Shown: piece after piece, positions 10,919 through 37,805 of the stretch
Numbering within the stretch: position 1 is the stretch's first letter
How the letters are laid out: each line of letters opens with the position of its first letter
Assembly: GCA_039908525.1 (NCBI GenBank)
Contig: JAMOAY010000006.1
Location: forward strand, 56,562 to 120,561
From: Magnetococcus sp. MYC-9
GTDB taxonomy: Bacteria; Pseudomonadota; Magnetococcia; Magnetococcales; Magnetaquicoccaceae
DNA length: 64,000 nucleotides
Direction: 5' to 3'
Program-made: the position numbers and the translations under genes
The notes under the pieces: model-generated
The model's database searches: none
Told to the model about the DNA's origin: nothing
Seen by the model: only the letters and a program-made list of their open reading frames with translations

Positions 10919-10969
10919 CTGCCTTCTCCTTGTCGTCTGCCGCGCCCTGTTATGGATCCGATGTCTGTC

Positions 10970-12055: not shown

Positions 12056-12072
12056 GGGAAATATCCTTATCA

Positions 12073-13467: not shown

Positions 13468-13539
13468 GATACGTTCCTCGTCCTTTGAAGTGTGAATAAC
13501 ACCTGCCATCATTGCACTGACATCCTGCCTTTGCTGGCT

Positions 13540-13555
13540 ATCAAGTTCCATACCA
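13540..13555 (-). promoter_or_regulatory. Possible sigma54 promoter (-24/-12, GA variant) for nrtA
   Basis: Minus strand TGGTATGGAACTTGAT = GG-N10-GA; non-canonical at -12. Confidence 0.35.
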
Positions 13556-13606
13556 TATAAAAAAACACAATAAACACAATATTTTATACAGAAAAGCAAC
13601 CCAAGC

Positions 13607-13620
13607 ATGCACAAAAAATA
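13607..13620 (+). promoter_or_regulatory. ATGCACAAAAAATA motif, NtrC-half-site-like, copy 1
   Basis: An identical 14-mer recurs at 17116-17129 upstream of nirB. Confidence 0.45.
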
Positions 13621-13813
13621 AGCAGAGATGGAGCTGTGTTACAGCAGTTGCCAAAAAAAGTTCCTCCACCCAGCGCGGACATGGATCGCCATTTGCGGCA
13701 GATTGTATATTAATTGGGCATTGCATGCATTCAATCACGACTTGTGGTTAAATTTTATGCAATCCCCTCATACCCATTTTTGCCAACAGACGGTCATCTC
13801 ATAAGATTTTGCA

Positions 13814-13829
13814 TGGCACGAATCTTGAG
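13814..13829 (+). promoter_or_regulatory. Possible sigma54 promoter for the narK-type transporter gene
   Basis: TGGCACGAATCTTGAG: perfect -24 element TGGCACG, correct spacing, TTGA instead of TTGC at -12. Confidence 0.5.
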
Positions 13830-13891
13830 GTACGCTCTCGGTGCGAAGAGCGGCCAACCGGAACCAACACACCCATCCAGGGAAGAGCAAT

Positions 13892-15361: not shown

Positions 15362-15367
15362 GTCGAC

Positions 15368-17089
15368 ATGCCCCCCAAGAATATTGTTCTGACCGTAGGC
15401 TCCTGCAGCGAGCGGGGCGCCAAGGCGGAAAATCAGGATTTTTGCGGCTGGCTGGTTCCCCACGAGCCTCTGTTGACAACCAAGGGGATCGCCGTTCTGC
15501 TGGCAGACGGTGTGAGCGGCTGCGATGCCGGGGCCGAGGCCAGCGAGTATTGCGTCAAAGGGTTCATCAACGACTATTTCAGCACCCCGGACTCCTGGTC
15601 GGTCCGCCTTGCTGGCCAGAAAGTTCTGGCTGCCCTGAACAACTGGCTGTTCGGGGAGGGACAGAAGCGCGCCCTGTCTCGCCGTGGTCTGGTGACAACC
15701 CTGAGCGCTGTGGTCTTCAAGTCGACCACGGCCCATCTCTTCCATGTGGGGGATTCGCGTGTCTCCTGGGTGCGCCAGGGCCGTCTGGAGATCCTGACCC
15801 GTGCGCATCGGGTGCAGATTGCGCCGGATCGGGAATACCTGAGTCGGGCACTGGGCCTGGACTCCTACCTGGAGATCGATTTTCGAACCGTCCCGTTGCA
15901 GGTGGGAGACTGGTTTGTGCTCAGCACCGATGGGGTCAGCGAACATGTGGAGGATAACGTTCTGCTGGAGTTGCTGGGCAGTCGGGAGACTCCCGCCGAT
16001 GAAATCGCCCGGCAAATCTGTGCCGCCGCCATCGCCAATCACTCCCCGGACAATGTCACCTGCGTGGTGGTGCGGGTAGACGCGCTGCCTCTGCAGGAGG
16101 CCGATGAGGTTTTCAGGGAGTTGACCGCACTGCCTTTCCCGCCCGAGCTGGAACCGGGCATGCGCATGGACGGCTATACCATCCAACAGGCCCTGCACGC
16201 CAGTTCCACCAGCCAACTGTATCTGGCCTGGGACGAACAGGATGGTCGCAGGGTGGTGATCAAAACCCCCTCGGTCAACTACGAAGACGATCCTGCCTAC
16301 ATTGAACGCTTCCACCACGAGGAGTGGGCCGGCAAACGGATCCACAACCCCCACGTCCTGAAGGTGTTGGAACCAGGCCACCGTCGGCGCTTCCTCTACG
16401 TGGTCATGGAGCATGTGGAGGGGCACACCCTGCGACATTGGATCGAGGAGCACCCCAATCCGGAGATCCATGCGGTACGGGAGATCCTGGATCAGATCAC
16501 CGCCGGTCTGCGGGCCATCCATCGGATGGATATGCTGCACCGGGACTTGAAACCGGAAAACATCATGATGGATGCCAAGGGACGGGTCATCCTGATTGAT
16601 CTGGGCTCGGTCAAGATCGCGGGGATTGCCGAGCTGTCCACGCCCGTGCAGCGGGCAGAGATCCTGGGAACCCTCGATTACACAGCTCCGGAATATTTCC
16701 ATGGCCAACCAGGAAGCAAGCGCTCCGACATCTACTCATTGGGTGTCATCGCCTACGAAATGTTGACCGGCAAAACACCCTATGGCGAACTGCCCAAGGG
16801 GGGGTGGAAAAAGGCCCCAAACCTGGCCTACACCTCAGCCACCCTGCACAACCCGATGATCCCGCTCTGGATGGATGGCGCCCTGGAGAAGGCGACCCGC
16901 ACCGACCCACACCGGCGTTACGAAACACTGTCTGAATTTCTCCAGGATTTTTCCCATCCCAATGCCGCCTTCCTCAACCAGCTGCCGGCACCGATCCTGG
17001 AGCGCAACCCCCTCTTGTTCTGGCGTTTTTTTTCCCTGCTGATGCTGTTCTGCAACCTGCTGCTGCTCTTCCTCTTGAGCCGTCGCTGA
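15368..17089 (+). CDS. Bifunctional PP2C-type phosphatase / Hanks-type Ser/Thr protein kinase
   Basis: PP2C motifs ADGVSG, HVGDSR, STDGV, SPDN; kinase motifs VIK, HRDLKPEN, DLG, GTLDYTAPE; C-terminal TM helix. Confidence 0.92.
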   Translation: MPPKNIVLTVGSCSERGAKAENQDFCGWLVPHEPLLTTKGIAVLLADGVSGCDAGAEASEYCVKGFINDYFSTPDSWSVRLAGQKVLAALNNWLFGEGQKRALSRRGLVTTLSAVVFKSTTAHLFHVGDSRVSWVRQGRLEILTRAHRVQIAPDREYLSRALGLDSYLEIDFRTVPLQVGDWFVLSTDGVSEHVEDNVLLELLGSRETPADEIARQICAAAIANHSPDNVTCVVVRVDALPLQEADEVFRELTALPFPPELEPGMRMDGYTIQQALHASSTSQLYLAWDEQDGRRVVIKTPSVNYEDDPAYIERFHHEEWAGKRIHNPHVLKVLEPGHRRRFLYVVMEHVEGHTLRHWIEEHPNPEIHAVREILDQITAGLRAIHRMDMLHRDLKPENIMMDAKGRVILIDLGSVKIAGIAELSTPVQRAEILGTLDYTAPEYFHGQPGSKRSDIYSLGVIAYEMLTGKTPYGELPKGGWKKAPNLAYTSATLHNPMIPLWMDGALEKATRTDPHRRYETLSEFLQDFSHPNAAFLNQLPAPILERNPLLFWRFFSLLMLFCNLLLLFLLSRR

Positions 17090-17115
17090 CTCTCGGATCA
17101 CCCTGTGCTGCGGTT

Positions 17116-17129
17116 ATGCACAAAAAATA
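17116..17129 (+). promoter_or_regulatory. ATGCACAAAAAATA motif, NtrC-half-site-like, copy 2
   Basis: Identical to 13607-13620; about 100 bp upstream of a canonical sigma54 motif. Confidence 0.45.
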
Positions 17130-17223
17130 ATCATTTGCTCTCTTTTGCCACACCTGTTGATTAAAAAAGTGACCATCCCGACCGCTGTTTTTAATAAACA
17201 ATTAATAATTATGTAAATATTTA

Positions 17224-17240
17224 TTGGCAAGCAATGTGCA
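17224..17240 (+). promoter_or_regulatory. Sigma54 (-24/-12) promoter upstream of nirB
   Basis: TTGGCAAGCAATGTGCA: GG (17226-27)-N10-GC (17238-39), in an AT-rich intergenic region. Confidence 0.65.
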
Positions 17241-17351
17241 GTAACCTGCTCATCGCCCCTCTGGCCTCGCCACTGCCTATACGGTAGCAGGATGTTCGGT
17301 CGGGTGGCATGAAACGCACCCATTACCCGGTCCTTCAGGAGAGGTCGAACG

Positions 17352-19793
17352 ATGCAGGAATCATTGATAGTGGTCGGCAACGGCATGGCCGCCATGCGCA
17401 CCCTGGAAAAGCTGTTGGAGCTGGCGCCGGACAAGTACCGGATCACCGTATTCGGCGCCGAACCACACGCCGGCTACAACCGGATCCTTCTCTCTTCTGT
17501 GCTGTCCGGGGAGAAGGGGATGGAAGAGATCGTCACCCACTCTCACGCTTGGTTTGCCGAACAGGGCATCGCCCTGCACACCGGGCTGCCGATCACCGCC
17601 ATCGACCGCCGGGGCAAGGCCGTGGTGGATCAGCATGGAGAACGCCACGCCTACGACCGACTGTTGCTGGCCACCGGATCGCACCCCATCCTGCTGCCAT
17701 TGCCCGGCAAGGATCTGCCGGGGGTGGTGCCCTTCCGGGATGCCTGGGATGTGGAACGCATGGTGTCGGCGGCCAAAGAGGGGGGGCAGGCGGTGGTCAT
17801 CGGCGGTGGTCTGCTGGGTCTGGAGGCAGCCGTTGGCTTGAAAAACCGGGGCATGGAGGTAACCGTCGTGCACCTGATGGATACCCTGATGGAGCGGCAA
17901 CTGGATGCGGCGGCCGGGGCCCTGCTCAAGACGGAGTTGAAATCCCGTGGTCTTTCGTTCCGCATGCCGGCAGAGAGCGTCGCCATTATCGGCGAGAGCC
18001 ATGTCACCGGCCTGCAACTCAAGAGCGGCGAACTGCTGCCGGCCGATCTGCTGGTGATGGCGGTTGGCATTCGACCCAACGCCGACCTGGCCAGAGAGGC
18101 CGGTCTGGTCTGCGGCCGGGGTGTGGTGGTGAACGACAGCCTGACCACCTCCGATCCGGCCATCCTGGCGGTGGGAGAGTGCGTCGAGCACCGAGGGGTG
18201 GTCTACGGTCTGGTGGCCCCGCTCTTTGCCCAGGGGGAGGTGTTGGCCCGCCATTTGGCGGACCTGCCGGATGCGGGGAGTTATGAGGGTTCTGTGGTGT
18301 CGACCCGTTTGAAGGTCACCGGGGTGGATCTCTTTTCCGGTGGGGAGATCCATGAAACGGCCATGGATGAGGTGATCCTGTTTCAGGATCCAGCCCGACG
18401 CATCTACAAAAAGCTGCTGGTACGGGACGACCGCATTCGCGGCGTGGTGCTGCTGGGGGATACCCGCGACGGCGCCTGGTATGCGCAATTGATGTACCAG
18501 GGTGAGGATATCGCCCCTCTGCGCAACCACATCCTGTTCGGCGACATCCAGACCGGTGGTACGGATCAACACGATGTGGCCAATCTGGCGGATGATCATG
18601 AGGTCTGCGGCTGCAATGGGGTATCCAAGGGCCACATCGTGGCGACTACATTGGACAAAGGGCTGACCACGCTGGAGGAGGTGCGGGCCCATACCAAGGC
18701 GTCGAGTTCCTGCGGCTCCTGCACCCATATCGTGGAAAAGATTCTGACGGCTGCCTTGGGGGTTGACTACGAGGCATGCAGCGTTAAATCCCTCTGCTGC
18801 TGCACCTCGCTGACCAGCGATGAGGTACGGGAAGCGGTGCGGGATGGGGCCCCGCAAACGGTGCAGGAGGTGATGACCCGGTTGCATTGGAGCACCCCGG
18901 ACGGCTGTCCGAGCTGCCGGCCGGCCATCAACTACTATCTGACCGTATTCCATCCCGAGCATCACCAGGACGAACCGACGGCACGTTTTGTCAACGAGCG
19001 GTTTCACGCCAACATCCAAAGGGATGGCACCTACTCCGTGGTGCCGCGCATCTTTGGCGGCATCACGGCAGCCCAGGAGCTGCGGGTGATCGCCGAGTTG
19101 GTGGAGCGGTTTGCCATCCCGGAGGTCAAATTCACCGGTGGGCAGAGATTGACCCTGCTGGGGGTGAAGCGGGAGCAACTGCCGGAGGTCTGGGGGGAGC
19201 TGGCGCGCCACGGCATGGTTTCCGGTCATGCCTATGGCAAGGCGATGCGCACCGTCAAGACCTGCGTCGGCGACCACTGGTGCCGTTTTGGCACCCAGGA
19301 TTCGGAAAAGATGGGGGTCAAGCTGGAACAACTGCTGTGGAACAGCTGGACCCCGCACAAGGTCAAGCTGGCGGTTTCCGGCTGCCCGCGCAACTGTGCC
19401 GAGGCCACCATCAAGGATATCGGTGTCATCGCTGTGGATTCCGGCTGGGAGATCCATGTGGGCGGCAACGGTGGCATCAAGGTCCGGGTCACAGACCTGC
19501 TGGTCAAGGTGGCCACCATGGAGGAGGTGTGCGAATGGTCGGCCGCCTTCATGCAGATGTACCGGCGGGAGGCCCGCTACCTGGAGCGCACGGCACCCTG
19601 GGTGGAACGGGTGGGGATTGATGCCATCCGGGCCCATCTGGGGAATGATGGCCGACGTCGCGCCCTGGCCGAAAGCTTTCACACTGCCCATGCCGGGCTG
19701 GAGGATCCCTGGCAGGCCAGAAGTCTGGCCCCGGCCGCAAAACGGTTTGCTCCCCTGGCAATCATCCCGTATCAAAAAGAGAGGGTCGCATGA
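17352..19793 (+). CDS. nirB: NAD(P)H-dependent nitrite reductase large subunit
   Basis: VVGNGMAA FAD motif, VIGGGLLGLEAA, BFD-like CGCN..CGSC, siroheme/Fe-S RTVKTCVG..C and AVSGCPRNCAE. Confidence 0.97.
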   Translation: MQESLIVVGNGMAAMRTLEKLLELAPDKYRITVFGAEPHAGYNRILLSSVLSGEKGMEEIVTHSHAWFAEQGIALHTGLPITAIDRRGKAVVDQHGERHAYDRLLLATGSHPILLPLPGKDLPGVVPFRDAWDVERMVSAAKEGGQAVVIGGGLLGLEAAVGLKNRGMEVTVVHLMDTLMERQLDAAAGALLKTELKSRGLSFRMPAESVAIIGESHVTGLQLKSGELLPADLLVMAVGIRPNADLAREAGLVCGRGVVVNDSLTTSDPAILAVGECVEHRGVVYGLVAPLFAQGEVLARHLADLPDAGSYEGSVVSTRLKVTGVDLFSGGEIHETAMDEVILFQDPARRIYKKLLVRDDRIRGVVLLGDTRDGAWYAQLMYQGEDIAPLRNHILFGDIQTGGTDQHDVANLADDHEVCGCNGVSKGHIVATTLDKGLTTLEEVRAHTKASSSCGSCTHIVEKILTAALGVDYEACSVKSLCCCTSLTSDEVREAVRDGAPQTVQEVMTRLHWSTPDGCPSCRPAINYYLTVFHPEHHQDEPTARFVNERFHANIQRDGTYSVVPRIFGGITAAQELRVIAELVERFAIPEVKFTGGQRLTLLGVKREQLPEVWGELARHGMVSGHAYGKAMRTVKTCVGDHWCRFGTQDSEKMGVKLEQLLWNSWTPHKVKLAVSGCPRNCAEATIKDIGVIAVDSGWEIHVGGNGGIKVRVTDLLVKVATMEEVCEWSAAFMQMYRREARYLERTAPWVERVGIDAIRAHLGNDGRRRALAESFHTAHAGLEDPWQARSLAPAAKRFAPLAIIPYQKERVA

Positions 19794-20116
19794 ACGACTG
19801 GCACTGTGTAGGAAATCTGGAGGATCTCACGCCCCTGGAAGGTCGGGTGGTGCGGGTGGAGGGACTGGGGGATCTGGCCCTGTTCCGCACGGCGGACGAA
19901 CAGCTCTATGCCCTGACCGACCGCTGCCCCCACCGGGGTGGACCCCTGTCCGCCGGCATGGTGCACGGTCACAAAGTGACCTGTCCACTGCACGGTTGGA
20001 CTTTGGACCTGGAGACAGGACAGGTGTTGGGACCTGACCAGGGTTGCGTGGAACGTTATCCGGTACGACTGCAGGGCGGGCAGATTTACCTGCAGTTGGA
20101 GGCAAGCCCTGGCTGA
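19790..20116 (+). CDS. nirD: Nitrite reductase small subunit (Rieske-type)
   Basis: CPHRGGPLSAG and CPLHGW Rieske motifs; overlaps the nirB stop. Confidence 0.93.
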   Translation: MNDWHCVGNLEDLTPLEGRVVRVEGLGDLALFRTADEQLYALTDRCPHRGGPLSAGMVHGHKVTCPLHGWTLDLETGQVLGPDQGCVERYPVRLQGGQIYLQLEASPG

Positions 20117-20192
20117 AAGGGTGTTCTGTGTGGTAGTCTGACAGCCTTGGTTTCTTTCCAATTCGGGAATTGATCATTGTTTCGTCCATGCC

Positions 20193-20220
20193 TGGGGGAG
20201 GCGGTGAACCGCCTCCCCCA
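20193..20220 (+). terminator. Perfect 12-bp GC-rich hairpin between nirD and narG (terminator or RNA-stability element)
   Basis: TGGGGGAGGCGG-TGAA-CCGCCTCCCCCA; the T-run lies ~16 nt downstream rather than adjacent. Confidence 0.4.
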
Positions 20221-20255
20221 GACCCCCTCCACCCTTCTTTTTTAATAGTTTTTAA

Positions 20256-20333
20256 CTATTACGGGTCCAGGGGGATACTCCCCCTGGTGGGGTCCAGGGG
20301 CAAAGCCCCTGGGGGGTCGGGGGCGAAGGCCCC
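20256..20333 (-). repeat. Dispersed double-hairpin repeat, copy 2 (inverted), plus an extra GGGGC-GAAG-GCCCC hairpin
   Basis: Reverse complement of 20256-20309 reads GGGGCTTTGCCCCTGGACCCCACCAGGGGGAGTATCCCCCTGGACCCGTAATAG, differing from copy 1 only in a loop and at one base. Confidence 0.85.
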
Positions 20334-20386
20334 AAATAATGGACCGGACAACGATCAAGCCCCCCATTCACAGGGGAATCAGCACG

Positions 20387-23300
20387 ATGAGCCATTTTCT
20401 GGATCGGCTGAAATTTTTCAAACGGCTGGGGCAACCCTTCGCCGACGGACATGGCGTCACCACCCAGGAGGATCGCAGCTGGGAGGACGGATATCGCAAC
20501 CGTTGGCGACATGACAAGGTGGTGCGCTCCACCCATGGGGTGAACTGTACCGGCGGTTGCAGCTGGAAGATCCATGTCAAAGGGGGGCTGGTCGCCTTTG
20601 AGATGCAGCAGACCGACTACCCCGCCACCCGCCCCGAAATGCCCAATCATGAACCGCGGGGCTGTCAGCGGGGAGCGAGCTTTTCCTGGTACCTCTACAG
20701 CCCCCACCGGGTCAAATATCCGTTGATTCGTGGCCGTCTGGTGGAGATCTATCGGCAGATGCGGGCACAAGGCAAGGATCCCGTCGATGCCTGGGCCGCC
20801 ATTCAGGCCGATCCGGCTCTGCGGGCGCGTTATACCGCCGTCCGGGGGTTGGGCGGTTTCGTGCGGGCCGAATGGGATGAGGTGGTGGAGATCATTGCCG
20901 CCGCCAACATTCATACCATTGAAAAACATGGCCCGGACCGCATCTATGGCTTCTCGCCAATCCCTGCCATGTCGATGATCTCCTATGCGGCGGGCTCCCG
21001 CTATCTCTCCCTGATCGGCGGGGTTCCTCTCTCTTTTTACGACTGGTATTGCGACCTGCCTCCCTCTTCGCCACAAACCTGGGGAGAGCAGACCGATGTG
21101 CCGGAATCCGCCGATTGGTTCAACGCCGGCTATATCATCCTCTGCGGCGCCAACCTGCCCATGACCCGCACCCCGGATGCCCATTTCGCCGTGGAAGCAC
21201 GTTACAATGGTACCAAGATTGTCTCCATGGCCCCGGATTACGCCGAATATGTCAAGCTGGCCGACCATTGGCTGCCGGTGCGACAGGGCACCGACGCCGC
21301 CGCCTTCCTGGCCATGGGGCACGTGGTTCTCAAAGAGTTTTTTCTCGAACGGGTCGAGCCTTATTTCTGGGAGTACGCCCAGCGCTACACCGACCTGCCC
21401 ATGCTGGTCACCCTGCGGGCCTACGGGGATCATTGGGTGCCGGACCGCTTTTTGCGCGCTGCGGATTTCGACGACCGTCTGGGGGAGGAGAACAACCCGG
21501 CATGGAAAACGGTGCTGTTCGATGAACGCAGTGGCCAGTATGTCTGTCCCAACGGTTCGGTCGGCTTTCGCTGGGGGGAAGAGGGGCGATGGAACATCCT
21601 GCCCCGCAACGCCCGCGACCAGCAGGAGATTTCGGCCCAGCTCAGTGCCATCGACCGGCACGATGGCGTGGAACGGGTGGCCCTGCCCCACTTCGCCCCC
21701 CAGGAACCACGGGAGAGGATGGTTCAGGTACCGGTGCGCATGATCTCATGCAGCGGCGGGGTGATCCGGGTGGCCACCGTGTTCGATCTGCAGGTGGCGC
21801 AATACGGTCTCGGCCGTGGCTTGCCGGGGGAGGAGAGCGTCGGCTACGACGATGCCGCTCGACCTTACACCCCGGCCTGGCAGGAAAAGATCACCGGCGT
21901 GGCAGCTGCCGACATCATCCGCACGGCTCGAGAGTTTGCCGACAATGCCGCCAAAACCAGGGGCAAGTCGATGGTCATCCTCGGCGCGGCGGCCAACCAC
22001 TGGTATCACAGCGACATGAGCTACCGCTCCACCATGAATCTGCTGCATCTGTGCGGCTGCGTGGGCCAGTCCGGGGGCGGTTGGGCTCACTATGTGGGCC
22101 AGGAAAAGCTTCGGCCCCAGGCAGGGTGGGCACCGATCGCCTTCGGGCTGGACTGGCACAAACCGCCGCGCCTCATGAACGGCACCAGCTTTTTCTATTT
22201 TCATACCGACCAGTGGCGCTACGAGCGGCTGTCGGCAGACGAATTTCTCACCCCATCGGCCAAGGGCAAGTACCGGGGCCATCAACTGGTCGATTACAAT
22301 GTGGTCGCCCAGCGACTGGGCTGGTTACCCTCGGCCCCCCATTTCAACCGCAACCCCCTGGAGATGTGCCGCGCCGCCGTGGCGGAGGGTGCCGGCAGCG
22401 ATGCGGAGATCGTCCAACAGGTGGTGGCGGACCTGAAGAGTGGGCGCACGGCCTTTGCCGCCGAGGATGTGGACGCGCCGGAGAATTTCCCCCGCAACCT
22501 GTTTGTCTGGCGGGCCAATCTGCTGGGCACCAGTGCCAAGGGGCATGAGTATTTCCTGAAACATCTGCTGGGAGCGCAGAACGGTGTCCTGAATCAGGGT
22601 ACCGAGGGGAAGGCCGCCCGGGAGGTCCGCTGGCGCCCGCAGGCCCCCACCGGCAAGCTGGATCTGCTGGTGGATATCAATTTCCGTCTGAACTCCACCG
22701 GTGCCTACGCAGACATTGTTCTGCCCACCGCCACCTGGTATGAAAAGACCGATCTCAACACCACCGACATGCACCCTTTCATCCATCCGCTGAGCGAAGC
22801 GGTGGCGCCTGGTTGGCAGAGTCGCTCCGACTGGCAGATTTTCCAGTCCATCGCCAAGCGGTTTGCCGAGTTGGCCAAGGAACGGCTGGGGGTGTGCAAG
22901 GATCTGGTGGCGGTGCCGTCCATGCACGACTCCCCCGGCGAGTTGGGGCAGCCCTTTGGGGTTTTGGATTGGAAAAGGGGTGATGTGGAGCCGATACCCG
23001 GCAAGACCCTGCCCAATCTCAAGGTGGTCGAGCGGGATTATGGGGCCGTCCACGACCGATTCATCACCCTGGGGCCCTTGCTGGTCAGCGAGGGCAACAA
23101 CGTCAAGGGGCTGGATTGGCAGACCGCAACCGAGTACGAAGAGCTGAAGATTCTCAACGGCACCTACCAGGGGCGTCCCCTGTTGCAACGGGACGAAGCG
23201 GTGTGCGAGGCGGTACTGAATCTGGCCCCGGAGACCCAGGGGGAGGTGGCGCACAAAGCCTGGCAGGCCCTGGAGAAAAAAACCGGCCTCTCCCATACCC

Positions 23301-24139
23301 ACCTGAGCGCGGCGCGCCGGGAGGAGCGGATTCGTCTGGCCGATATTTGTGTTCAGCCGCGCAAGATCATCACCGCCCCCACCTGGAGCGGCATCGAGTC
23401 GGAGCATGTCAGCTATACGGCCAGTTACACCAACATCCATGAGCACATTCCCTTCCGTACCCTGACCGGTCGGGCACACTTTTATCAGGATCATGAATGG
23501 ATGCTGGACTTTGGCGAGGGGTTTTGCACCTACCGCCCCCCTGCCCTGCTCAACGCCCACTTGCATCTTCCGGAGCGGGTGAAACGGGGACCGCATCTGC
23601 TGTTGAACTGGATCACCCCCCACTCCAAATGGGGCATTCACAGCACCTATAACGACAACCTGCGCATGTTGACCCTGTTCCGGGGCGGACCCACGGTCTG
23701 GGTGGCGGAGGCAGACGCCCAGAGCATCGGCCTGGTGGACAACGACTGGGTGGAGGCGGTCAATGCCAATGGGGCAACGGTGGCCAGGGTGGTGGTCTCC
23801 CAGAGAATCCCGAGGGGGATGGCCATGATGTACCATGCCCAGGAGAAGATCATCAACGTGCCGGGCTCCCCCAGCACCGGCAAGCGGGGGGGAATACTCA
23901 ACTCGGTGACCCGGATCGTGGTCAAACCCACCCACATGATCGGCGGCTATGCGCAGCTCGCCTATGGATTCAACTATTATGGTACGGTGGGGTCGCAGAG
24001 GGATGAATTCGTCGCCATCCACAAGATCGAGGCCCCGCGCATGGACTGGCTGGAGAAACCGTTGACGGCCGAGCGGGAGAGTCAGCCCGATCCCCCTGCC
24101 CGACTGCTGGAGACGGCCACTACCCGGAGGCAAGCATGA
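20387..24139 (+). CDS. narG: Respiratory nitrate reductase alpha subunit (Mo-bisPGD)
   Basis: MSHFLDRL start, RSTHGVNCTGGCSW (His-ligated FS0), YDWYCDLPP, TPHSKWGIHS; no Tat signal, so cytoplasm-facing. Confidence 0.98.
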   Translation: MSHFLDRLKFFKRLGQPFADGHGVTTQEDRSWEDGYRNRWRHDKVVRSTHGVNCTGGCSWKIHVKGGLVAFEMQQTDYPATRPEMPNHEPRGCQRGASFSWYLYSPHRVKYPLIRGRLVEIYRQMRAQGKDPVDAWAAIQADPALRARYTAVRGLGGFVRAEWDEVVEIIAAANIHTIEKHGPDRIYGFSPIPAMSMISYAAGSRYLSLIGGVPLSFYDWYCDLPPSSPQTWGEQTDVPESADWFNAGYIILCGANLPMTRTPDAHFAVEARYNGTKIVSMAPDYAEYVKLADHWLPVRQGTDAAAFLAMGHVVLKEFFLERVEPYFWEYAQRYTDLPMLVTLRAYGDHWVPDRFLRAADFDDRLGEENNPAWKTVLFDERSGQYVCPNGSVGFRWGEEGRWNILPRNARDQQEISAQLSAIDRHDGVERVALPHFAPQEPRERMVQVPVRMISCSGGVIRVATVFDLQVAQYGLGRGLPGEESVGYDDAARPYTPAWQEKITGVAAADIIRTAREFADNAAKTRGKSMVILGAAANHWYHSDMSYRSTMNLLHLCGCVGQSGGGWAHYVGQEKLRPQAGWAPIAFGLDWHKPPRLMNGTSFFYFHTDQWRYERLSADEFLTPSAKGKYRGHQLVDYNVVAQRLGWLPSAPHFNRNPLEMCRAAVAEGAGSDAEIVQQVVADLKSGRTAFAAEDVDAPENFPRNLFVWRANLLGTSAKGHEYFLKHLLGAQNGVLNQGTEGKAAREVRWRPQAPTGKLDLLVDINFRLNSTGAYADIVLPTATWYEKTDLNTTDMHPFIHPLSEAVAPGWQSRSDWQIFQSIAKRFAELAKERLGVCKDLVAVPSMHDSPGELGQPFGVLDWKRGDVEPIPGKTLPNLKVVERDYGAVHDRFITLGPLLVSEGNNVKGLDWQTATEYEELKILNGTYQGRPLLQRDEAVCEAVLNLAPETQGEVAHKAWQALEKKTGLSHTHLSAARREERIRLADICVQPRKIITAPTWSGIESEHVSYTASYTNIHEHIPFRTLTGRAHFYQDHEWMLDFGEGFCTYRPPALLNAHLHLPERVKRGPHLLLNWITPHSKWGIHSTYNDNLRMLTLFRGGPTVWVAEADAQSIGLVDNDWVEAVNANGATVARVVVSQRIPRGMAMMYHAQEKIINVPGSPSTGKRGGILNSVTRIVVKPTHMIGGYAQLAYGFNYYGTVGSQRDEFVAIHKIEAPRMDWLEKPLTAERESQPDPPARLLETATTRRQA

Positions 24140-25668
24140 ACATTCGCGCCCAGATCGCCATGGTTCTGAACCTGGATAAATGCATTGGCTGCCACACCTG
24201 CTCGGTGACCTGCAAGAATGTCTGGAGCAATCGCAGAGGGGTGGAGTATGCCTGGTTCAACAATGTGGAAAGCAAGCCGGGCATCGGCTACCCCAAAAAC
24301 TGGGAAGATCAGAGCCTCTGGCGTGGGGGTTGGCAAAGCAAAAACGGCGCTTTACTGCTGCGCACCGGCGGGCGTCTGGCGCATCTGAAAAACATCTTTG
24401 CCAACCCGGACCTGCCGCAGATAGACGATTATTACGAGCCCTTCGACTTCGATTATGCCCATCTGCAAAACGCCCCCCTCTCCGAGGCGACACCCACCGC
24501 CCGGCCCCGTTCCCTGATCGACGGGCTGCGCATGGAAAAGATCCAGTGGGGCCCCAACTGGGAGGATGGACTGGCGGGGGAGTTTGCCAAACGGAGCGAG
24601 GATGTCAACTTTGCGGGCGTCGGCAGGGAGATCTATGCCGAATTCGAGAAATCGTTCCAGCTCTTTCTGCCGCGTCTGTGCAACCACTGTCTGAACCCGG
24701 CCTGTGTGGCCGGTTGTCCCTCCGGCTCCATCTACAAGCGGGTCGAGGATGGCATCGTGCTGGTGGACCAGGAGCGCTGCCGGGGCTGGCGGATGTGCGT
24801 CAGCGCCTGCCCCTACAAAAAGGTCTATTACAACTGGGAGTCGGGCAAGTCGGAAAAATGCCTGCTCTGTTATCCACGCATCGAGTCGGGGATGCCCACC
24901 AACTGTGCGGAGTCCTGTGTCGGTCGCATTCGCTACATGGGGGTGGTACTGTACGATGCCGACCGCATCCGGCAGGCGGCGGTGACCCCGGATGAAAAAG
25001 GGCTCTATCAATCCCAGCTGGATCTGTTTCTGAATCCCCACGATCCCGAGGTGGTGCAGGCAGCCCAGCGGGAGGGGGTTCCGGCCTCCTGGCTGGAGGC
25101 GGCCCGCCGTTCGCCGGTTTATAAAATGGCGGTGGAGTGGAAGATCGCCTTCCCGCTGCACCCGGAGTTTCGCACCCTGCCGATGATGTGGTATGTGCCG
25201 CCCCTGTCGCCGATCCAGTCGCGGCTGGAGGCCGGCCAACTGCCCACCGAGGGAGGGGGTTTCTTCCCGGAGCCCGGCGCCTTGCGGCTGCCGGTGGGCT
25301 ATCTGGCCAACCTGTTCACCGCCGGCGAGGAGAAACCGGTTCTGGATGCCCTCCACCGTTTGCTGGCCATGCGTACCTACCGGCGCTCCCTGAAACGGTT
25401 GGAGGAGGCCGACACGGCCGTGCTGGCCGAATTGGGGCTGACGGTGGCGCAGGTGGAGGAGATGTACCGTCTGTTGGCCCTGGCGGACTACCGGGATCGC
25501 TATGTCATCCCCACCTCGGCCCGGGAGTGGAGTCTGGACGACCCGTCTGCCTTCCAGGGGCACAACGGTCTTTCGTTCGGCCATGAGGGCGCGGCGGACG
25601 CTTTCTCATTGTTTCCGGATCCACGGCGCACGACCCAACCGGCCAAAGGGGACAGGGAAGGGGGATGA
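24136..25668 (+). CDS. narH: Respiratory nitrate reductase beta subunit
   Basis: LNLDKCIGCHTCSVTCK, CNHCLNPACV, CRGWRMCVSACPY. Confidence 0.98.
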   Translation: MNIRAQIAMVLNLDKCIGCHTCSVTCKNVWSNRRGVEYAWFNNVESKPGIGYPKNWEDQSLWRGGWQSKNGALLLRTGGRLAHLKNIFANPDLPQIDDYYEPFDFDYAHLQNAPLSEATPTARPRSLIDGLRMEKIQWGPNWEDGLAGEFAKRSEDVNFAGVGREIYAEFEKSFQLFLPRLCNHCLNPACVAGCPSGSIYKRVEDGIVLVDQERCRGWRMCVSACPYKKVYYNWESGKSEKCLLCYPRIESGMPTNCAESCVGRIRYMGVVLYDADRIRQAAVTPDEKGLYQSQLDLFLNPHDPEVVQAAQREGVPASWLEAARRSPVYKMAVEWKIAFPLHPEFRTLPMMWYVPPLSPIQSRLEAGQLPTEGGGFFPEPGALRLPVGYLANLFTAGEEKPVLDALHRLLAMRTYRRSLKRLEEADTAVLAELGLTVAQVEEMYRLLALADYRDRYVIPTSAREWSLDDPSAFQGHNGLSFGHEGAADAFSLFPDPRRTTQPAKGDREGG

Positions 25669-26192
25669 TGTCGCTCTTTGCCATCCTTTCCGCTCTGCTG
25701 GACTATCCCACGACGGAGTTGCAAGGGGCCCTGGGGGAGATTCGTCTGCGCACCGAGACGGCCAACGATCTGGAAGATGCCGAACGGCAGGCCATTCTGG
25801 CGCTGCTGGCCACCCTGGAGGAGTGTTCCATCGTGGAGTTGCAGAGCCGGTACGTGGAAATATTTGATCTGAACCCGGACCACAGTCTCCATTTGACCCA
25901 TCATCTGCTGGGGGATGACAACCGGGAGCGGGGACCGGCCTTGATCCAGCTGGCCAGCCATTTTTGCCAGCAGGGCTGGGAGATCCACAATGGCGAGCTG
26001 CCGGATTTTCTGCCTTTGTTGTTGGAATTTGCGGCACAGCTGCCGCTGCAGGATGCGGAATCCTTTCTGGCCGAAGCGGTTCCGGCCCTGGCCATCCTGG
26101 CCGGCAATCTGGAGCGGCACGGCCACCCAGCCCATGCGGCGCTGGTCCGTCTGGTGGAACGGCGCGGCAGACGGGCCCTGGCAACCGCCTGA
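25665..26192 (+). CDS. narJ: Nitrate reductase molybdenum cofactor assembly chaperone
   Basis: LLDYP, YVEIFD, RERGPAL, ELPDFLPLLLEF; position in the nar operon. Confidence 0.92.
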   Translation: MMSLFAILSALLDYPTTELQGALGEIRLRTETANDLEDAERQAILALLATLEECSIVELQSRYVEIFDLNPDHSLHLTHHLLGDDNRERGPALIQLASHFCQQGWEIHNGELPDFLPLLLEFAAQLPLQDAESFLAEAVPALAILAGNLERHGHPAHAALVRLVERRGRRALATA

Positions 26193-33497: not shown

Positions 33498-33588
33498 GAA
33501 CTCCACATGAAATTGCAGATCGCCTCTGGGTGAAAGACTCTTTTTGATCTCAAAATTGAGAAACTGCGCATCCCAGGACAGGTACGGT

Positions 33589-34881
33589 TTAGTACAAGCA
33601 TTCACGAACCATACCGAACATGCCAGAGGCAGATGGACGCAGTATCTGTCTATATGCTCTACGTGAATCGGCGTTTGACACAGATATATTTATGCCTAAT
33701 TTATAATTGACGACATCAATTGAGTAAGGCAAAAATTCTTTGGACAGATGCATACGATCATAAAATAAAGACTTGTTGGCAAGCCCATCATCGAGCATCG
33801 TGGCGGACAAGACAGACAATACGGGAACGCCGCTCAATTTACGCAACATCTCTGTAAACATAACAGCTGCATAATTTTTTTCCAATCCTGTTTGTCCGCC
33901 TGCACAAGAGCCAATAGGCGGTCCCCAAACAGCTATTTTATCGTAGACTTGTTTCAATTCTCGGATAAAGGAGATGTAACCGTTGACACTTTCAGTGACG
34001 GTTCCAAGCAGACCAGATTTTCTGGCAGTGGATTTTTTTAAAATATGCCAAGCAATATCGCACGCGCCAAAACTAAGCATGATCCAACCATCAAAACCGT
34101 GAGATAGTGCATGGCGCACACAGTCAAAAGATCTTTCTCTACCCGCATCTCCCTCATTTCGCAAACTCCAGGCATAGGAAGGCCCAACATATTCTGCCAG
34201 AATGCCTGGGATTAAGCTTAAGCCATCCATGTCCCGTCCAGCCCAAAACAAGCTATGACTGTCTCCAATGACTAATAGTGAGGTATGTTTAATTTTTGCA
34301 ACGTTACACTCCCACCTGACAGGTGAAGTGCCATCCCCTACCTTCCAAGTATAGGCCAGCATGATCTCCAACAAAAAACGTTTAATGGAGGCCAAGGAAG
34401 AAGGGTGCCGCACAGCTATGTTGACCATAATGGTCGCAATATAAACAGGCAGCGTCCCAGTTTGTGATAATTCCTGTATAATAGTCTCTGGCGTGGCAGA
34501 AGAAAATCGTTCTTGTATGATTGCGCTGGCACGATCTATGTTTGCGGAGTTATTTTTCGCCCAATTGTATGTCGATTGTAGAAACAAATTCTTATCGTAT
34601 TCTGGGCCCAACCTATCAAGAATGACCGTCGCAAGCTGCGCATGAAAATCACTGGCCGCAGCAAATTTATCGTAAATCTCTTTGTGGGGCTTTTGGTCAA
34701 TCAATCTAAAATTAATATATTCTATTACTGGAATTATCCTATTTACTAGTCGAGCTCTGACGTGCGTGCTGAATCGATGGATCAACTCTTCGCGTGGTAC
34801 TCCTCGGAGCAACATAGTCACCAACCAAGCAACCAAGTCCACGACAGCTACAGGCAATTCTTTTTCCATAGAGCGCGACAT
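33589..34881 (-). CDS. Hypothetical protein: N-terminal helical domain(s) plus C-terminal SGNH/GDSL-like hydrolase
   Basis: 430-aa ORF in AT-rich DNA; SGNH-like blocks VIGDSH, SFGACD, YDRMH; alternative start ATG 34869. Confidence 0.7.
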   Translation of the reverse strand: MSRSMEKELPVAVVDLVAWLVTMLLRGVPREELIHRFSTHVRARLVNRIIPVIEYINFRLIDQKPHKEIYDKFAAASDFHAQLATVILDRLGPEYDKNLFLQSTYNWAKNNSANIDRASAIIQERFSSATPETIIQELSQTGTLPVYIATIMVNIAVRHPSSLASIKRFLLEIMLAYTWKVGDGTSPVRWECNVAKIKHTSLLVIGDSHSLFWAGRDMDGLSLIPGILAEYVGPSYAWSLRNEGDAGRERSFDCVRHALSHGFDGWIMLSFGACDIAWHILKKSTARKSGLLGTVTESVNGYISFIRELKQVYDKIAVWGPPIGSCAGGQTGLEKNYAAVMFTEMLRKLSGVPVLSVLSATMLDDGLANKSLFYDRMHLSKEFLPYSIDVVNYKLGINISVSNADSRRAYRQILRPSASGMFGMVRECLY

Positions 34882-35086
34882 CCTTCAGGCAAAAAGTCAA
34901 CAGGAAAACCATGGATTGGTACATCATACCCGGACAGACCAGCAAAAATTGTAACTGAGTCGCGCACACCCGTTCAATCTCTGTCTCATAATGCTCTGTC
35001 CCATCATGGGGCGTGCTCATCGGAGGTGAACAACAAACAGCCACGCATCCCGGGATCAGGTGCGGTCTAAACCTGCCTGCACACTT

Positions 35087-35309
35087 TTATTTTTCCGAAG
35101 CCTCAAGGATATCCAATAAATCGCCAACGGTTACGATGGATTCCACCTCACTTGGCGCTATTACCACACCGTAGGCTTCCTCAACACCGATTACAAGATT
35201 CATTTGATTGAATGAATCCCAGGCATCCAGTTCCCTGATAACCAATATCTCAACTAAATTAATATTGGCATCCTGAAACGCCTCCTGGAAAATTTTTTCT
35301 TTTTTCCAT
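35087..35309 (-). pseudogene. Acyl carrier protein-like gene with a 1-nt frameshift near the start (missed by the ORF track)
   Basis: Hand translation: EKIFQEAFQDANINLVEILVIRELDAWDSFNQMNLVIGVEEAYGVVIAPSEVESIVTVGDLLDILEASEK*; ATG to TAA spans 223 nt (3n+1); the ATG is out of frame across a G-A6-G-A6 run. Confidence 0.75.
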
Positions 35310-35430
35310 TTCCAAACCCGAAGAGTTATTCGCTGAACGCGACGCCCCCCTGCGAGGGCAAAAAATCAACAACTGTATCGGCTTAGAGTGATAGGGAGTC
35401 TTCGACAACTTCGCCCCGTATACCCCACCC

Positions 35431-35478
35431 GAGGGATTTGCCCTCTGGGCACCCACCGGGGGCCGTGACGGCCCCCGG
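35431..35478 (+). repeat. Divergent member of the double-hairpin repeat family
   Basis: GAGGG-ATTTG-CCCTC TGGGCA CCCA CCGGGGGCCG-TGA-CGGCCCCCGG: same architecture, different stems. Confidence 0.55.
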
Positions 35479-35491
35479 CAAAAAATTTTAC

Positions 35492-35884
35492 TCAGAACGG
35501 CCACACCTTGGCAGACTGCTTTTTCTTCCAGTAGACATAACCGCCTGCGGTCAGCGCAGTGGCCAGCAGGAGCGGTCCCCAGGCACCAAGACCCAGACCC
35601 AACCCCAGACTCAACCCTTTGCCATTCCAGATTGTACCGGCGGCGACCTTGGAACCGGGACCCGCGACGGTGACAAGATTCGGATCCATGCCGGTCACCA
35701 CCACCCCTTTGCCGGTACCTGCACCGATCTGCATCGGTGTGGCGGCCGCAGCGGCCCCTTTGGCGCCAGCCGCCATCTTGGCGGGCACGATCTCCGGCGC
35801 GCTGAACTCGACAAACCCCGGCCCGGCGACTTTCAGGGTCTCTCCTGCCAGCAACTCCACAGCAAAACTTTGAGTAATCGCCAT
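35492..35884 (-). CDS. Mms6/Mms5/MamD-family magnetosome membrane protein-like
   Basis: AGTIWNGKGLSLGLGLGLGAWGPLLL (LG repeat plus TM helix), basic C-terminus; strong [10 protein letters not shown]. Confidence 0.85.
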   Translation of the reverse strand: MAITQSFAVELLAGETLKVAGPGFVEFSAPEIVPAKMAAGAKGAAAAATPMQIGAGTGKGVVVTGMDPNLVTVAGPGSKVAAGTIWNGKGLSLGLGLGLGAWGPLLLATALTAGGYVYWKKKQSAKVWPF

Positions 35885-36029
35885 GATTATTTAAACCTCC
35901 TTATCCAGAAAACGGACCCGAGTGCCTGAGGCACCACCATATAGCCCCCCGACCACTACGCCCGCAGCGTAACATGGACCCCATTCTGTCGCAACGCAGC
36001 AATGCCATTCCATCACAAAAAATTGCCCG

Positions 36030-37805
36030 TCAGGGAATGTTGAGGGAGTCGGCAACCGGTTGCAGTCGCTGCATCTGGCCATTGGCCACCTGGAACAGGT
36101 GATAGAAGCGCCGACTGCGACCATTCTCCAAGAAACGGACCGGCCCATTGGCCCCCTGAAAACCGTTGGCACGGGTCAATCCGCTCTGCCAAGCAATCCC
36201 TCCCTGCCGCTGCTCCTGCAACAACTGGGCGATCACCGCCACGCCGTCGTAGGCCAGGGCGGCCAGAGGGCTGGGATCCTCCTCCCAGCTCTGACGGAAG
36301 GATTGCCGGAACTGCTCCCGGGCTGCCGTGTCCATGTCGCAAAAAATGGCCCCATTCAGGTAGTCTGTCCCCTCACTCAGCAGCTCCGGGCTGTTCCACA
36401 GGGCGGTACCCAGCAGGGTCACCTTGGCCTTCCCGGAACGGACGAGGGCCACCTGCGGTGCGATCAGGCGCACCTGCCTGGCGGGCGCAGGCAGAAACAG
36501 GGCGTCCACCTGGGGGCCCAAGGATTTCAACCAGGGAGAAAAATCGGTGGCTTCCGGGGGGAAATGGTTGCTCTTCACCACTGCCCCTCCCAGTGCCTGC
36601 ACCTCATCTGCAAAACTCTTGGCCACGCCGCGCCCGTACTCCGTCTCCGGTGCCAGGACGGCGATGTGGGCAAATCTTTTCTCCTGTACCGCGTAGCGGG
36701 CCATGATTTTGGCCTGCTGCTCCGGTTGCAGGGCGTTGGAGAACACCCCGGGGTTCGGCGGATCCCCCTCCCGCTGCGGGTTCAGGGTGATGATCGGCAC
36801 ACGACGCGCCACGGCCTCCTCCACCGCAGGCAACACCGTGGCGTAGAACACCGGACCGACGACAACATCGACCTGTTGCCCCAGCAGATCCCGAACGGCG
36901 GCACGTACCGTATCCGCTGTGTCACCGCTGTCGGCGATCTGCAGTTGTATGGAGGCGGCGGGATAGTCGGCCAGGGCCTTCTTGGCGGCACGGCGCAGAT
37001 GCTCGCCCATGCTGGCCGATTTGCCACTCAACGGCAGCAAAAGCCCTACCTTGAGAGCGGCACTGCTTCGTTCACCGACCACAGGCGTGGCAATCGGTGG
37101 TTGTGCCTGCCCGGACGGTGTGAGAAGGGAGGCGGAAGCATCCACCGCAGCGACGGATGGCGCCGTCAGCATGGCCTGCTGGAACAGAGGGGTCAATGAA
37201 GAGCCGGGTGGCTGCAGCTGCAACAACTCCTGAAGCCGGGGCCGGGCTTGCCGCTGCAACAGCTCCTGAAGCCGGCGATGCTGCTGGGCTGTCGGCTCCG
37301 TGTTGGCGATCTCCTGCAAAAAACGCGGGGTGTTATCCCGGTCCCCTTGTTTCAAATAGGACTCAAACAGCAAAACCCAGGCGGTCTCCCCATAGACGAC
37401 CTCTGCCGGGTCCACGCTGCCTTGGGCCACGGGGGCCCACTGTTGCCACGCCTCACGCAGCATGCCCTGGGAAAACAACAGTTGCCCTTGCAGAATGGCC
37501 ACCTCGGCCTGACTCTCCCCCTTGCGAACCTCGCCCTGCGCCGACTGGCCGGCGGAGACTACCGGAACGGCCTCCTTCCCCAGATGGCCTGCCTTGCCGG
37601 CAGCAGGCTCCTGGTTGGCACCCCGCGCAGGCACCAGCTGGGCGGCAGGGACAAGAGGCTTCTGGCCCGCACACCCCCACAGCAGCCCCGCACAGCCCAA
37701 CAGGAGCAAAACCCGCCACCGTACGGACGACCGGTGATGAGAGCAGGATGGCGTTTGGCACAGGATGGGCGTATCCTGTCCGACAGGCGTGGCGTAGTGG
37801 TCCAT
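36030..37805 (-). CDS. LpoA/LppC-like penicillin-binding-protein activator lipoprotein
   Basis: Lipobox LWGC; C-terminal periplasmic-binding type-1 fold (KVGLLLPLSG..LGP..LAYDGV..GANG); divergent from rsmI. True start probably downstream of 37805. Confidence 0.8.
   Translation of the reverse strand: MDHYATPVGQDTPILCQTPSCSHHRSSVRWRVLLLLGCAGLLWGCAGQKPLVPAAQLVPARGANQEPAAGKAGHLGKEAVPVVSAGQSAQGEVRKGESQAEVAILQGQLLFSQGMLREAWQQWAPVAQGSVDPAEVVYGETAWVLLFESYLKQGDRDNTPRFLQEIANTEPTAQQHRRLQELLQRQARPRLQELLQLQPPGSSLTPLFQQAMLTAPSVAAVDASASLLTPSGQAQPPIATPVVGERSSAALKVGLLLPLSGKSASMGEHLRRAAKKALADYPAASIQLQIADSGDTADTVRAAVRDLLGQQVDVVVGPVFYATVLPAVEEAVARRVPIITLNPQREGDPPNPGVFSNALQPEQQAKIMARYAVQEKRFAHIAVLAPETEYGRGVAKSFADEVQALGGAVVKSNHFPPEATDFSPWLKSLGPQVDALFLPAPARQVRLIAPQVALVRSGKAKVTLLGTALWNSPELLSEGTDYLNGAIFCDMDTAAREQFRQSFRQSWEEDPSPLAALAYDGVAVIAQLLQEQRQGGIAWQSGLTRANGFQGANGPVRFLENGRSRRFYHLFQVANGQMQRLQPVADSLNIP

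Follow-up and report, generated by a model that had tools for sequence, protein, structure and literature searches.

The DNA analysed here is a 64,000-nucleotide stretch (the window) of contig JAMOAY010000006.1 from Magnetococcus sp. MYC-9, an uncultured freshwater Magnetococcales bacterium and magnetotactic coccus. On its minus strand, at positions 35492..35884, lies an open reading frame (ORF) that starts with ATG and encodes a 130-residue protein of the LG-repeat magnetosome family, which we place in a basic-tail, 'MamD-like' subfamily. An initial annotation, made from the letters of the window alone, had described it as a lone Mms6/MamD-family gene outside any magnetosome island and lacking the acidic tail of Mms6. 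The coordinates, strand and translation given there were reproduced exactly, and the features set out below mark the ORF as a genuine Mms6/MamD/MamG-family (LG-repeat) gene, hereafter the LG gene.

Four parts can be told apart in the encoded protein. The N-terminal module (N-module; residues 1-31, MAITQSFAVELLAGETLKVAGPGFVEFSAPE, 35792..35884 on the minus strand, as are all parts of the gene), delimited in an alignment of 35 sequences, leads into a hypervariable Ala/Gly/Thr/Val-rich linker (residues 32-82, 35639..35791), which varies widely in length among homologues and is modelled as disordered. NCBIfam models and the alignment place the LG-repeat core, GTIWNGKGLSLGLGLGLGAWGP, at residues 83-104 (35573..35638). 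Within it, the GL repeat proper occupies residues 88-104 (GKGLSLGLGLGLGAWGP) and adjoins a hydrophobic helix, the combination by which the LG-repeat family is recognized; the predicted transmembrane (TM) segment (approximately residues 99-118, 35531..35590), located with AlphaFold2 and by reading the sequence, overlaps the end of the repeat. The C-terminal tail, WKKKQSAKVWPF (residues 119-130, 35495..35530), defined by the alignment and a count of charges, ends in W-P-F and is basic, with four basic and no acidic residues in KKKQSAKVWPF. The hallmark motif and TM helix of the initial annotation thus both stand, AlphaFold2 with the 35-sequence alignment modelling a single helix (residues 102-126) at low confidence (predicted local distance difference test score, pLDDT, 51).

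A codon-usage model trained on the long genes of the window prefers the minus-strand 35492-35884 frame, and on this score the 163-residue ORF that overlaps the LG gene on the opposite strand (35438-35929, plus) was rejected. Across six orthologues, the pairwise ratio of nonsynonymous to synonymous substitution rates (dN/dS) is 0.04-0.12, at saturating dS values of ~0.8-2.0; the LG gene is under strong purifying selection.

Three NCBIfam models match the protein, each of them confined to the LG/TM core (within residues ~34-124): those of Mms6 (NF040917; E 2e-13, 50.7 bits against a cut-off of 200, residues 34-122), MamD (NF040916; E 5e-13, 48.9 bits against 100, core only) and MamG (NF040985; E 6e-7, 29.7 bits against 100). 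The protein therefore falls below the equivalog cut-offs by which membership in Mms6, MamD or MamG is decided. Nor does it have the marks of Mms6 proper, since it carries no acidic magnetite/iron-interacting segment (MIC) and its gene is not part of an mms6 cluster beside mmsF. The Pfam family PF28196 ('Magnetosome_regulatory') is precomputed for its database entry (P0001) and for 53 of 53 other homologues; this assignment is taken from protein-database records, a direct scan with a local Pfam copy that lacked the model having given no match. In a profile search of 1.84 billion representatives, 196 family clusters (at 50% identity) were recovered in total, and the named matches all belong to Magnetococcales or to metagenome-assembled genomes (MAGs) of the magnetotactic bacteria (MTB) type, the unnamed metagenomic matches carrying no taxonomy.

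Compared with Mms6 of Magnetospirillum, the protein is alike in its small size, in an N-terminal region of ~90-100 residues and in a GL/LG repeat that overlaps a single C-proximal TM helix, but it differs in having no acidic C-terminus, in an N-terminal part that the Mms6 model leaves unmatched and in lying outside an mms6 operon. With MamD/Mms7 it shares the LG/TM core, whereas MamD is a protein of ~310-360 residues with four N-terminal repeats; the clade's own MamD (locus L010, 357 residues, 268 bits) has an acidic tail, unlike the window protein. MamG/Mms5 is likewise a small LG-repeat membrane protein, yet it has neither the N-module nor the W-P-F tail, and it is considered specific to Magnetospirillum (PMC3934378). 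A metagenomic protein of 262 residues (P0213) combines a MamD-repeat-like N-terminus (LTGKTFSLEG...) with the LG core of the subfamily described below and an RKRQAQKFWPF tail, a hybrid that points, tentatively, to an exchange of domains between MamD and the basic-tail subfamily.

The proteins that are 38%-84% identical to the window protein share its four-part architecture in the alignment: an N-module of the form M..T..F.V.LLAGE.LKVAGPG.VEF.APE, an Ala/Gly/Thr linker, the invariant GKGLSLGLGLGLGAWGP/TM core and a tail of the form GGYVYW[KR]KKQ..K.WPF. The N-module, which spans ~30 residues and can also be written LLAGE-x6-GPG-x3-F, retains G14, E15, G21, P22, G23 and F27 in all 35 aligned sequences, the window protein included. 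The tails are basic, 11-16 residues long and usually end in W-P-F, with W-P-L, L-P-F and W-S-F as variants. Of 192 family sequences, 46 have the N-motif, and every one of these 46 has a net basic tail as well; the matches with an acidic, Mms6-type tail are without the N-module. Tails of the W-P-F type contain an acidic residue in only one of 48 listed cases (P0209). The remaining sequences with a recognizable LG core (n = 140) are more mixed, 82 having acidic, 41 basic and 17 neutral tails, so that 58 of the 140 (~40%) are non-acidic. End to end, about a dozen of the 196 family clusters match the subfamily profile. The absence of acidic residues from the tail, to which the initial annotation had drawn attention, is thus real, but not as a peculiarity of this one gene: it is an invariant signature of the subfamily, and across the entire family it is no rarity either.

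The named subfamily members are all from Magnetococcales and include proteins of Magnetococcus marinus MC-1 (ABK44771), Magnetofaba australis IT-1 (WP_143814572) and DMHC-1 (H7833_10040). Homologues widespread in non-magnetotactic bacteria, which the initial annotation had regarded as evidence that would tell against it, did not emerge, and the close relatives possess magnetosome gene clusters (MGCs). The subfamily profile matches the MC-1 protein (P0247) over positions 1-130 at E 2e-11 and the IT-1 protein (P0212) at E 1e-23, and these two are 43% identical to each other over their full length. In the published description, the IT-1 'MamD-like' protein matches only the MC-1 'MamD-like' protein (42% identity, 97% coverage), its resemblance to MamD being limited to 23% of its length (PMC3934378); because our figure reproduces that comparison, we equate the subfamily with the 'MamD-like' label. 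The 'MamD-like' proteins of MC-1 (ABK44771, approximately Mmc1_2270) and IT-1 have the same architecture as the window protein, with an N-module of the form M..T.LNA.L.EGE..TL.GPG.V.F, an Ala/Thr-rich linker, the LG/TM core and a basic tail ending in W-(P/S)-F, and they resemble MamD across the LG region only (PMC3934378). On this evidence, the closest relatives of the window protein are the 'MamD-like' proteins of MC-1 and IT-1, not Mms6. There are differences, however: the MC-1 and IT-1 copies lie in or near the MGC, whereas the window copy lies beside lpoA in a housekeeping region, and pairwise BLAST aligns the window and MC-1 proteins over the last 40 residues only (33% identity), the LG repeat of the MC-1 protein being partly degenerate. 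The same is seen in P0266, P0286, P0322 and, as said, P0247 of MC-1, in which the N-module and a C-terminus that is basic and aromatic (KKKRFSFF, RFWSF) go together with a degenerate LG repeat (LGLSLGALNPW). Since such divergent members keep the N-module and the tail, these two elements seem more constrained than the repeat. Two MAGs hold paired subfamily copies, namely HQL80 (P0011 and P0013, 76-77% identical to the window protein) and HQM02 (P0036 and P0039, 45% identical), reflecting either recent duplication or mixed strains in the bin; P0039 is longer by 50 residues at its N-terminus, where the start was probably mis-called.

Upstream of the LG gene, on the same strand, lies lpoA (36030..37805, minus; LppC family, PF04348, a penicillin-binding protein activator), identified by Pfam and by the names of its orthologues. 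The best homologues of the window protein (60-84% identity) come from uncultured Magnetococcales, namely Magnetococcus sp. XQGC-1, DMHC-8, nWRX1bin1, HCHbin5 and an Umea bin. In all five orthologous genome loci (L001-L005), the gene sits directly 3' of lpoA, with the rsmI/yraN/BON/glcD/dksA/thiE/pfkB block beyond. A sister group, whose proteins begin with MPITQSF... and are 59-65% identical, is linked to lpoA too (locus L012 has lpoA upstream), and in four further assemblies LpoA and the LG protein are linked by contigs of equal size. The linkage holds in at least 13 assemblies in the clade of the window organism. The same junction with lpoA recurs in independent MAGs from different studies, and dozens of assemblies preserve the ORF intact over its full length. 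Because the position is reproduced in independent assemblies, the gene is not a piece of a split island, the case that the initial annotation had named as a threat to its own proposal.

Beyond this clade the site can be empty. The same dksA-glcD-BON-yraN-rsmI/lpoA block occurs without the LG gene in 'Ca. Magnetaquicoccus inordinatus' UR-1 and in the JADGBY MAG; there, a convergent AsmA-like gene and gatCAB follow within 50-75 bp of lpoA, and the spacers (L015:6094-6143 and L016:7906-7978, compared with window 35885-36029) hold no LG coding potential. Past the LG cassette, the genes differ from genome to genome, with a histidine kinase/response regulator pair, Usp and TauE in XQGC-1 and a 495-residue protein of unknown identity plus an Aas-like fusion in L012. 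The presence of the cassette in one clade and its absence from another mark the 3' end of lpoA as a breakpoint and hotspot of rearrangement. LpoA of UR-1 is closer to that of the window (53% identity) than are those of the sister group (43-48%), a pattern that may reflect either one insertion with later loss in the UR-1 lineage or uneven rates of LpoA evolution.

The signals around the gene suggest an independent unit. A ribosome-binding site (RBS), AAGGAGG (35896..35902, minus), lies 11 nt upstream of the ATG, in agreement with the strong RBS of the initial annotation, and its (A)GGAG core recurs in five of the six orthologous loci, with GGGG in L002. In the 145-bp spacer between lpoA and the gene, a TTGC-N17-TG.TA element has invariant TTGC and TG.TA positions in six genomes; in the window, these conserved columns suggest a candidate promoter of its own (35966..35994, minus) with TTGCGA at 35989-35994, a 17-nt spacer and TG-T-TACGCT (-10 at 35966-35971). 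Against the sigma-70 consensus this candidate is weak (7 of 12 matches) and is missed by a consensus scan, and a sigma-54 promoter was rejected for the same spacer, the GGCA...TTGCA elements being ~2 nt too far apart for strict GG-N10-GC. From 13 nt past the stop codon, two tandem GC-rich hairpins (35428..35478, minus) fold at -39.8 kcal/mol (z = -2.2), with no U-tract. Each orthologous locus has its own GC-rich hairpin past the stop codon, followed in several by a T-run, and sequence homology between the loci ends at the stop codon of the LG gene. The promoter-like element, the RBS, the locus-specific, terminator-type hairpins and the end of homology at the stop codon together make the gene look like a stand-alone monocistronic cassette; an operon with lpoA is disfavoured by the 145-bp spacer with its conserved promoter-like element and by lpoA genes without an LG neighbour.

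Within the window, ~50 gene calls and a Pfam scan revealed housekeeping functions only. The Mam-type combination (cation diffusion facilitator (CDF) transporters, LemA, MamK-type actin, PDZ/trypsin and magnetochrome domains) was not detected in the 64 kb by Pfam, a scan that misses very small Mam proteins without a model in the Pfam copy used, and sensitive tblastn found no second copy of the LG core in the window. A weak self-match at 58584-58952 (~35% identity) proved to be Ala-rich low complexity opposite a TolA-like gene, not a paralogue. With the exception of such tiny model-less proteins, therefore, the earlier statement that the 64 kb hold no other mam/mms gene agrees with both scans. 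'Lone' is accurate for the window but not as a novelty, given that scattered accessory genes and 'Mms6-L' have been described for these strains (PMC9840458).

Elsewhere in the order, subfamily genes are found both inside MGCs and away from them. A 108-residue copy in the PEAM01 MAG (P0037, L007:10001-10327) lies inside the mamAB operon between mamB and mamS, a slot that is empty in MC-1 (L011); P0041 and a MamS match (P0058) share one 3477-bp contig, which suggests a PEAM01-like mamB/mamS arrangement in that genome as well. P0029, to which NCBI gives the name 'magnetic particle specific iron-binding protein', stands at the head of a small cluster that also contains mmsF and mamK; although a distant member, it alone in the subfamily lies beside mmsF. 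The MC-1 copy lies 21 genes from mamS by consecutive accession numbers, the DMHC-1 copy 23 genes from mamS on one contig, and the IT-1 copy on the mamS contig. Others have different company: P0035 is beside hemerythrin and che genes, P0034 (DMHC-6) downstream of gidAB-parAB, and P0039 beside two-component regulators.

Among the lpoA-linked genomes, MamS is present in DMHC-8 and in the HQL87 MAG, whose MGC contig encodes mamM, N, O, P, A, Q, S, T and F as well as the 357-residue protein above the MamD cut-off (268 bits against 100). As the HQL87 MAG thus has both the lpoA-linked gene and a bona fide MGC MamD, the former is an additional, dispersed family member, as the initial annotation had proposed. 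In the HQL87 MGC, a fusion of a DtxR-type Fe-dependent repressor with FeoA (L010:9048-9710) lies between mamD and mamS, and no mamB stands between mamQ and mamS, an unusual mamAB layout.

We consider it probable that the LG gene encodes an accessory magnetosome-membrane protein which has kept the LG/TM core for sorting and oligomerization, is devoid of the acidic mineral-binding tail and is carried in an MGC-external cassette at lpoA. At the 3' end of lpoA, where synteny breaks off, the cassette has become fixed and has been kept by strong purifying selection, with the MGC located elsewhere. Its product would be a small membrane protein anchored near the C-terminus. In Mms6, four domains have been distinguished, namely an N-terminal domain (cytosolic retention, conditional sorting), the GL repeat (membrane localization), the TM segment and the acidic MIC (iron/magnetite binding), and the topology of the protein is disputed (PMC11332177). 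By analogy with these domains, the GL/TM core of the window protein may direct its insertion into membranes or its sorting to that of the magnetosome, and it may also associate with other LG-repeat proteins such as the MamD of the clade, while the N-module and linker may be the handle by which the protein is sorted or binds a partner. Binding of iron or crystal via an Mms6-type tail would not be expected, since the acidic segment that interacts with magnetite is absent. The protein might rather modulate the maturation of the crystal or the growth of the membrane, or serve as a scaffold for either. MamD itself is a regulator of magnetosome membrane growth rather than a simple iron binder, being conditionally sorted and acting as a brake on that growth (PMC11332177), and this role offers a plausible functional analogue.

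Several points weigh against this interpretation. In many lineages, the gene stands beside regulators, parAB or lpoA and not beside mam genes, which weakens any argument from guilt by association, and the MGC of the window organism is itself deduced from those of its relatives. Homology between the N-module and the MamD repeats is unsupported: a reading of the module as a shortened MamD repeat was rejected, hhalign giving the expected register but a probability of 0.5% and E 0.12. As the N-terminal part is also unmatched by the Mms6 model, a sorting role for it is drawn purely by analogy. The topology is ambiguous, a tail as basic as this one speaking for a C-terminus in the cytoplasm under the positive-inside rule, and the predicted structure of the protein is, at its modelled confidence, uninformative. 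We found no public sequencing run containing the locus from which expression could be read, and no proteomics. Localization, topology, partners and phenotype of the window protein are accordingly what we infer from related systems.

A broader, tentative possibility, to which we give less than even weight, is that the basic-tail class as a whole has kept the sorting/oligomerization core, has a membrane-interface tail in place of the mineral-binding one and has acquired a conserved N-terminal interaction module, its members regulating in trans either proteins of the MamD/Mms6 type or the growth of the magnetosome membrane. If so, the frequent escape from the MGC (to lpoA, parAB, two-component and che loci) would imply that magnetococci need genes from beyond the MGC to form magnetosomes and regulate the process separately through them, and that MGC-only transplantation and MGC-based annotation would overlook the basic-tail 'MamD-like' genes.

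Unlikely, in our view, is that the protein is a functional Mms6 equivalent that shapes magnetite directly, making contact through a lumen-facing segment such as the Lys/Trp/Phe tail or the linker. The LG/TM core is indeed common to the crystal-associated Mms5, Mms6 and Mms7, P0029 with its iron-binding name heads an mms6-type mini-cluster, and Liu et al. treat 'Mms6-L' as a factor of crystal size and morphology (PMC9840458). However, iron/magnetite binding by Mms6 maps to the acidic MIC (PMC11332177), acidic residues are all but missing from the listed W-P-F-type tails, the Mms6 model matches the core only and far below its cut-off, and the linker is hypervariable, unlike a conserved binding surface.

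Quite unlikely is a co-opted general envelope function, possibly linked to LpoA and peptidoglycan, with the resemblance to magnetosome proteins being a shared membrane-anchoring motif only. The gene's place immediately downstream of lpoA in at least 13 assemblies, in a clade whose LpoA has diverged to 43-61% identity, fits such a role, as do the lack of detected mam genes within 64 kb and the position of other members beside parAB, two-component regulators or che genes. Yet UR-1 and a related MAG keep lpoA without the LG gene, so LpoA does not need the LG protein; the gene is apparently an independent transcription unit rather than part of an operon with lpoA; neighbours that differ in every lineage argue for a passenger gene over a functional link; and the subfamily is confined to a magnetotactic order, inside MGCs in several lineages. 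Finally, although the gene adjoins an AT-rich, apparently foreign patch with a possibly frameshifted acyl-carrier-protein (ACP) gene and is overlapped by the opposite-strand 163-residue ORF, a decaying island relic, a spurious ORF or an assembly or binning artefact is effectively refuted by the low dN/dS at saturating dS, the intact full-length ORF, the recurrent lpoA junction and the codon-usage preference for the minus-strand frame.

Much of the background to this locus is already published, namely the LG-repeat family, the MC-1 and IT-1 'MamD-like' genes, 'Mms6-L' and scattering outside MGCs. The paper that sequenced XQGC-1 and DMHC-8 reported that accessory magnetosome genes can be scattered outside MGCs and described 'Mms6-L' as an extra protein with an Mms6-homologous region in some Pseudomonadota MTB, including Etaproteobacteria (PMC9840458). 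In that work (Liu et al. 2022), 'Mms6-L' appears as a protein model of THC-1 only, with 'Fe binding residues' marked and no locus tags; identity of the LG gene with 'Mms6-L' was considered and not established, the supplement being without locus tags. Koziaeva et al. reported mms6 to be absent from Magnetaquicoccaceae (PMC6783814), the family in which XQGC-1 and DMHC-8 were later placed (PMC11950176), and a small LG-repeat gene was thus arguably overlooked there. In the literature searched, we found no explicit definition of the subfamily by its N-module and basic W-P-F tail, no account of its fixation beside lpoA in the freshwater clade, and no functional test, magnetosome-membrane localization or phenotype for the 'MamD-like' subfamily. 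The gain is incremental: the observation behind the initial annotation is sound, its interpretation partly over-read. What it adds is a gene that an entire clade of freshwater magnetococci has long retained outside the MGC, and a subfamily definition that gives annotators a handle. Inventories and transplantation attempts centred on the MGC can miss accessory factors such as this clade-wide, MGC-external LG gene, and a natural 'Mms6 without the iron-binding tail' could help separate sorting or scaffolding by the GL/TM core from mineral binding.

Both flanks named by the initial annotation, the lpoA-like gene and an AT-rich patch, were recovered. The latter is an islet at ~33500-35450, directly 3' of the LG gene, with 41-49% GC against 61% for the window; it is absent from all orthologous loci and has the appearance of DNA that was acquired horizontally and inserted at the point where synteny breaks. 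It contains a 430-residue ORF (33589-34881, minus) with a weak SGNH/GDSL-hydrolase match in the C-terminal half only, and an ACP-like frame (35087-35365, minus; NCBIfam ACP, E 4e-7) that is open for ~90 codons. The sole in-frame start of the latter, a TTG, gives 52 residues, and, shifted by one frame, there is a plausible ATG at an A6-G-A6 run, suggesting a 1-nt frameshift, whether an assembly error or a pseudogene. The order of the ACP-like frame and the SGNH-like ORF recalls dltC-dltD, with no dltA or dltB present.

To the right of lpoA follow the divergent rsmI, yraN, a BON-domain gene, glcD, dksA, thiE, pfkB, a radical-SAM gene and sapC, and further on a lolE-like gene, rlmN, ndk, yebC, ruvAB, ybgC, tolR/tolA, a glcF-like gene, a Tim44-like gene and mltA. 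The left side carries nrfCD-like genes, phoD, hemC, pyrG, kdsA, gcvT and a nitrate/nitrite block, after which come infA, parE, tolC, nifU, ampD, mpl, algH and the AT-rich patch. In Magnetospirillum, the denitrification pathway influences magnetite biomineralization; the window holds a large nitrogen-oxide block (9242-26192) with an nrtABC-type transporter, a narK-like major facilitator superfamily gene, a PP2C phosphatase/Ser-Thr kinase fusion, nirBD and narGHJ.

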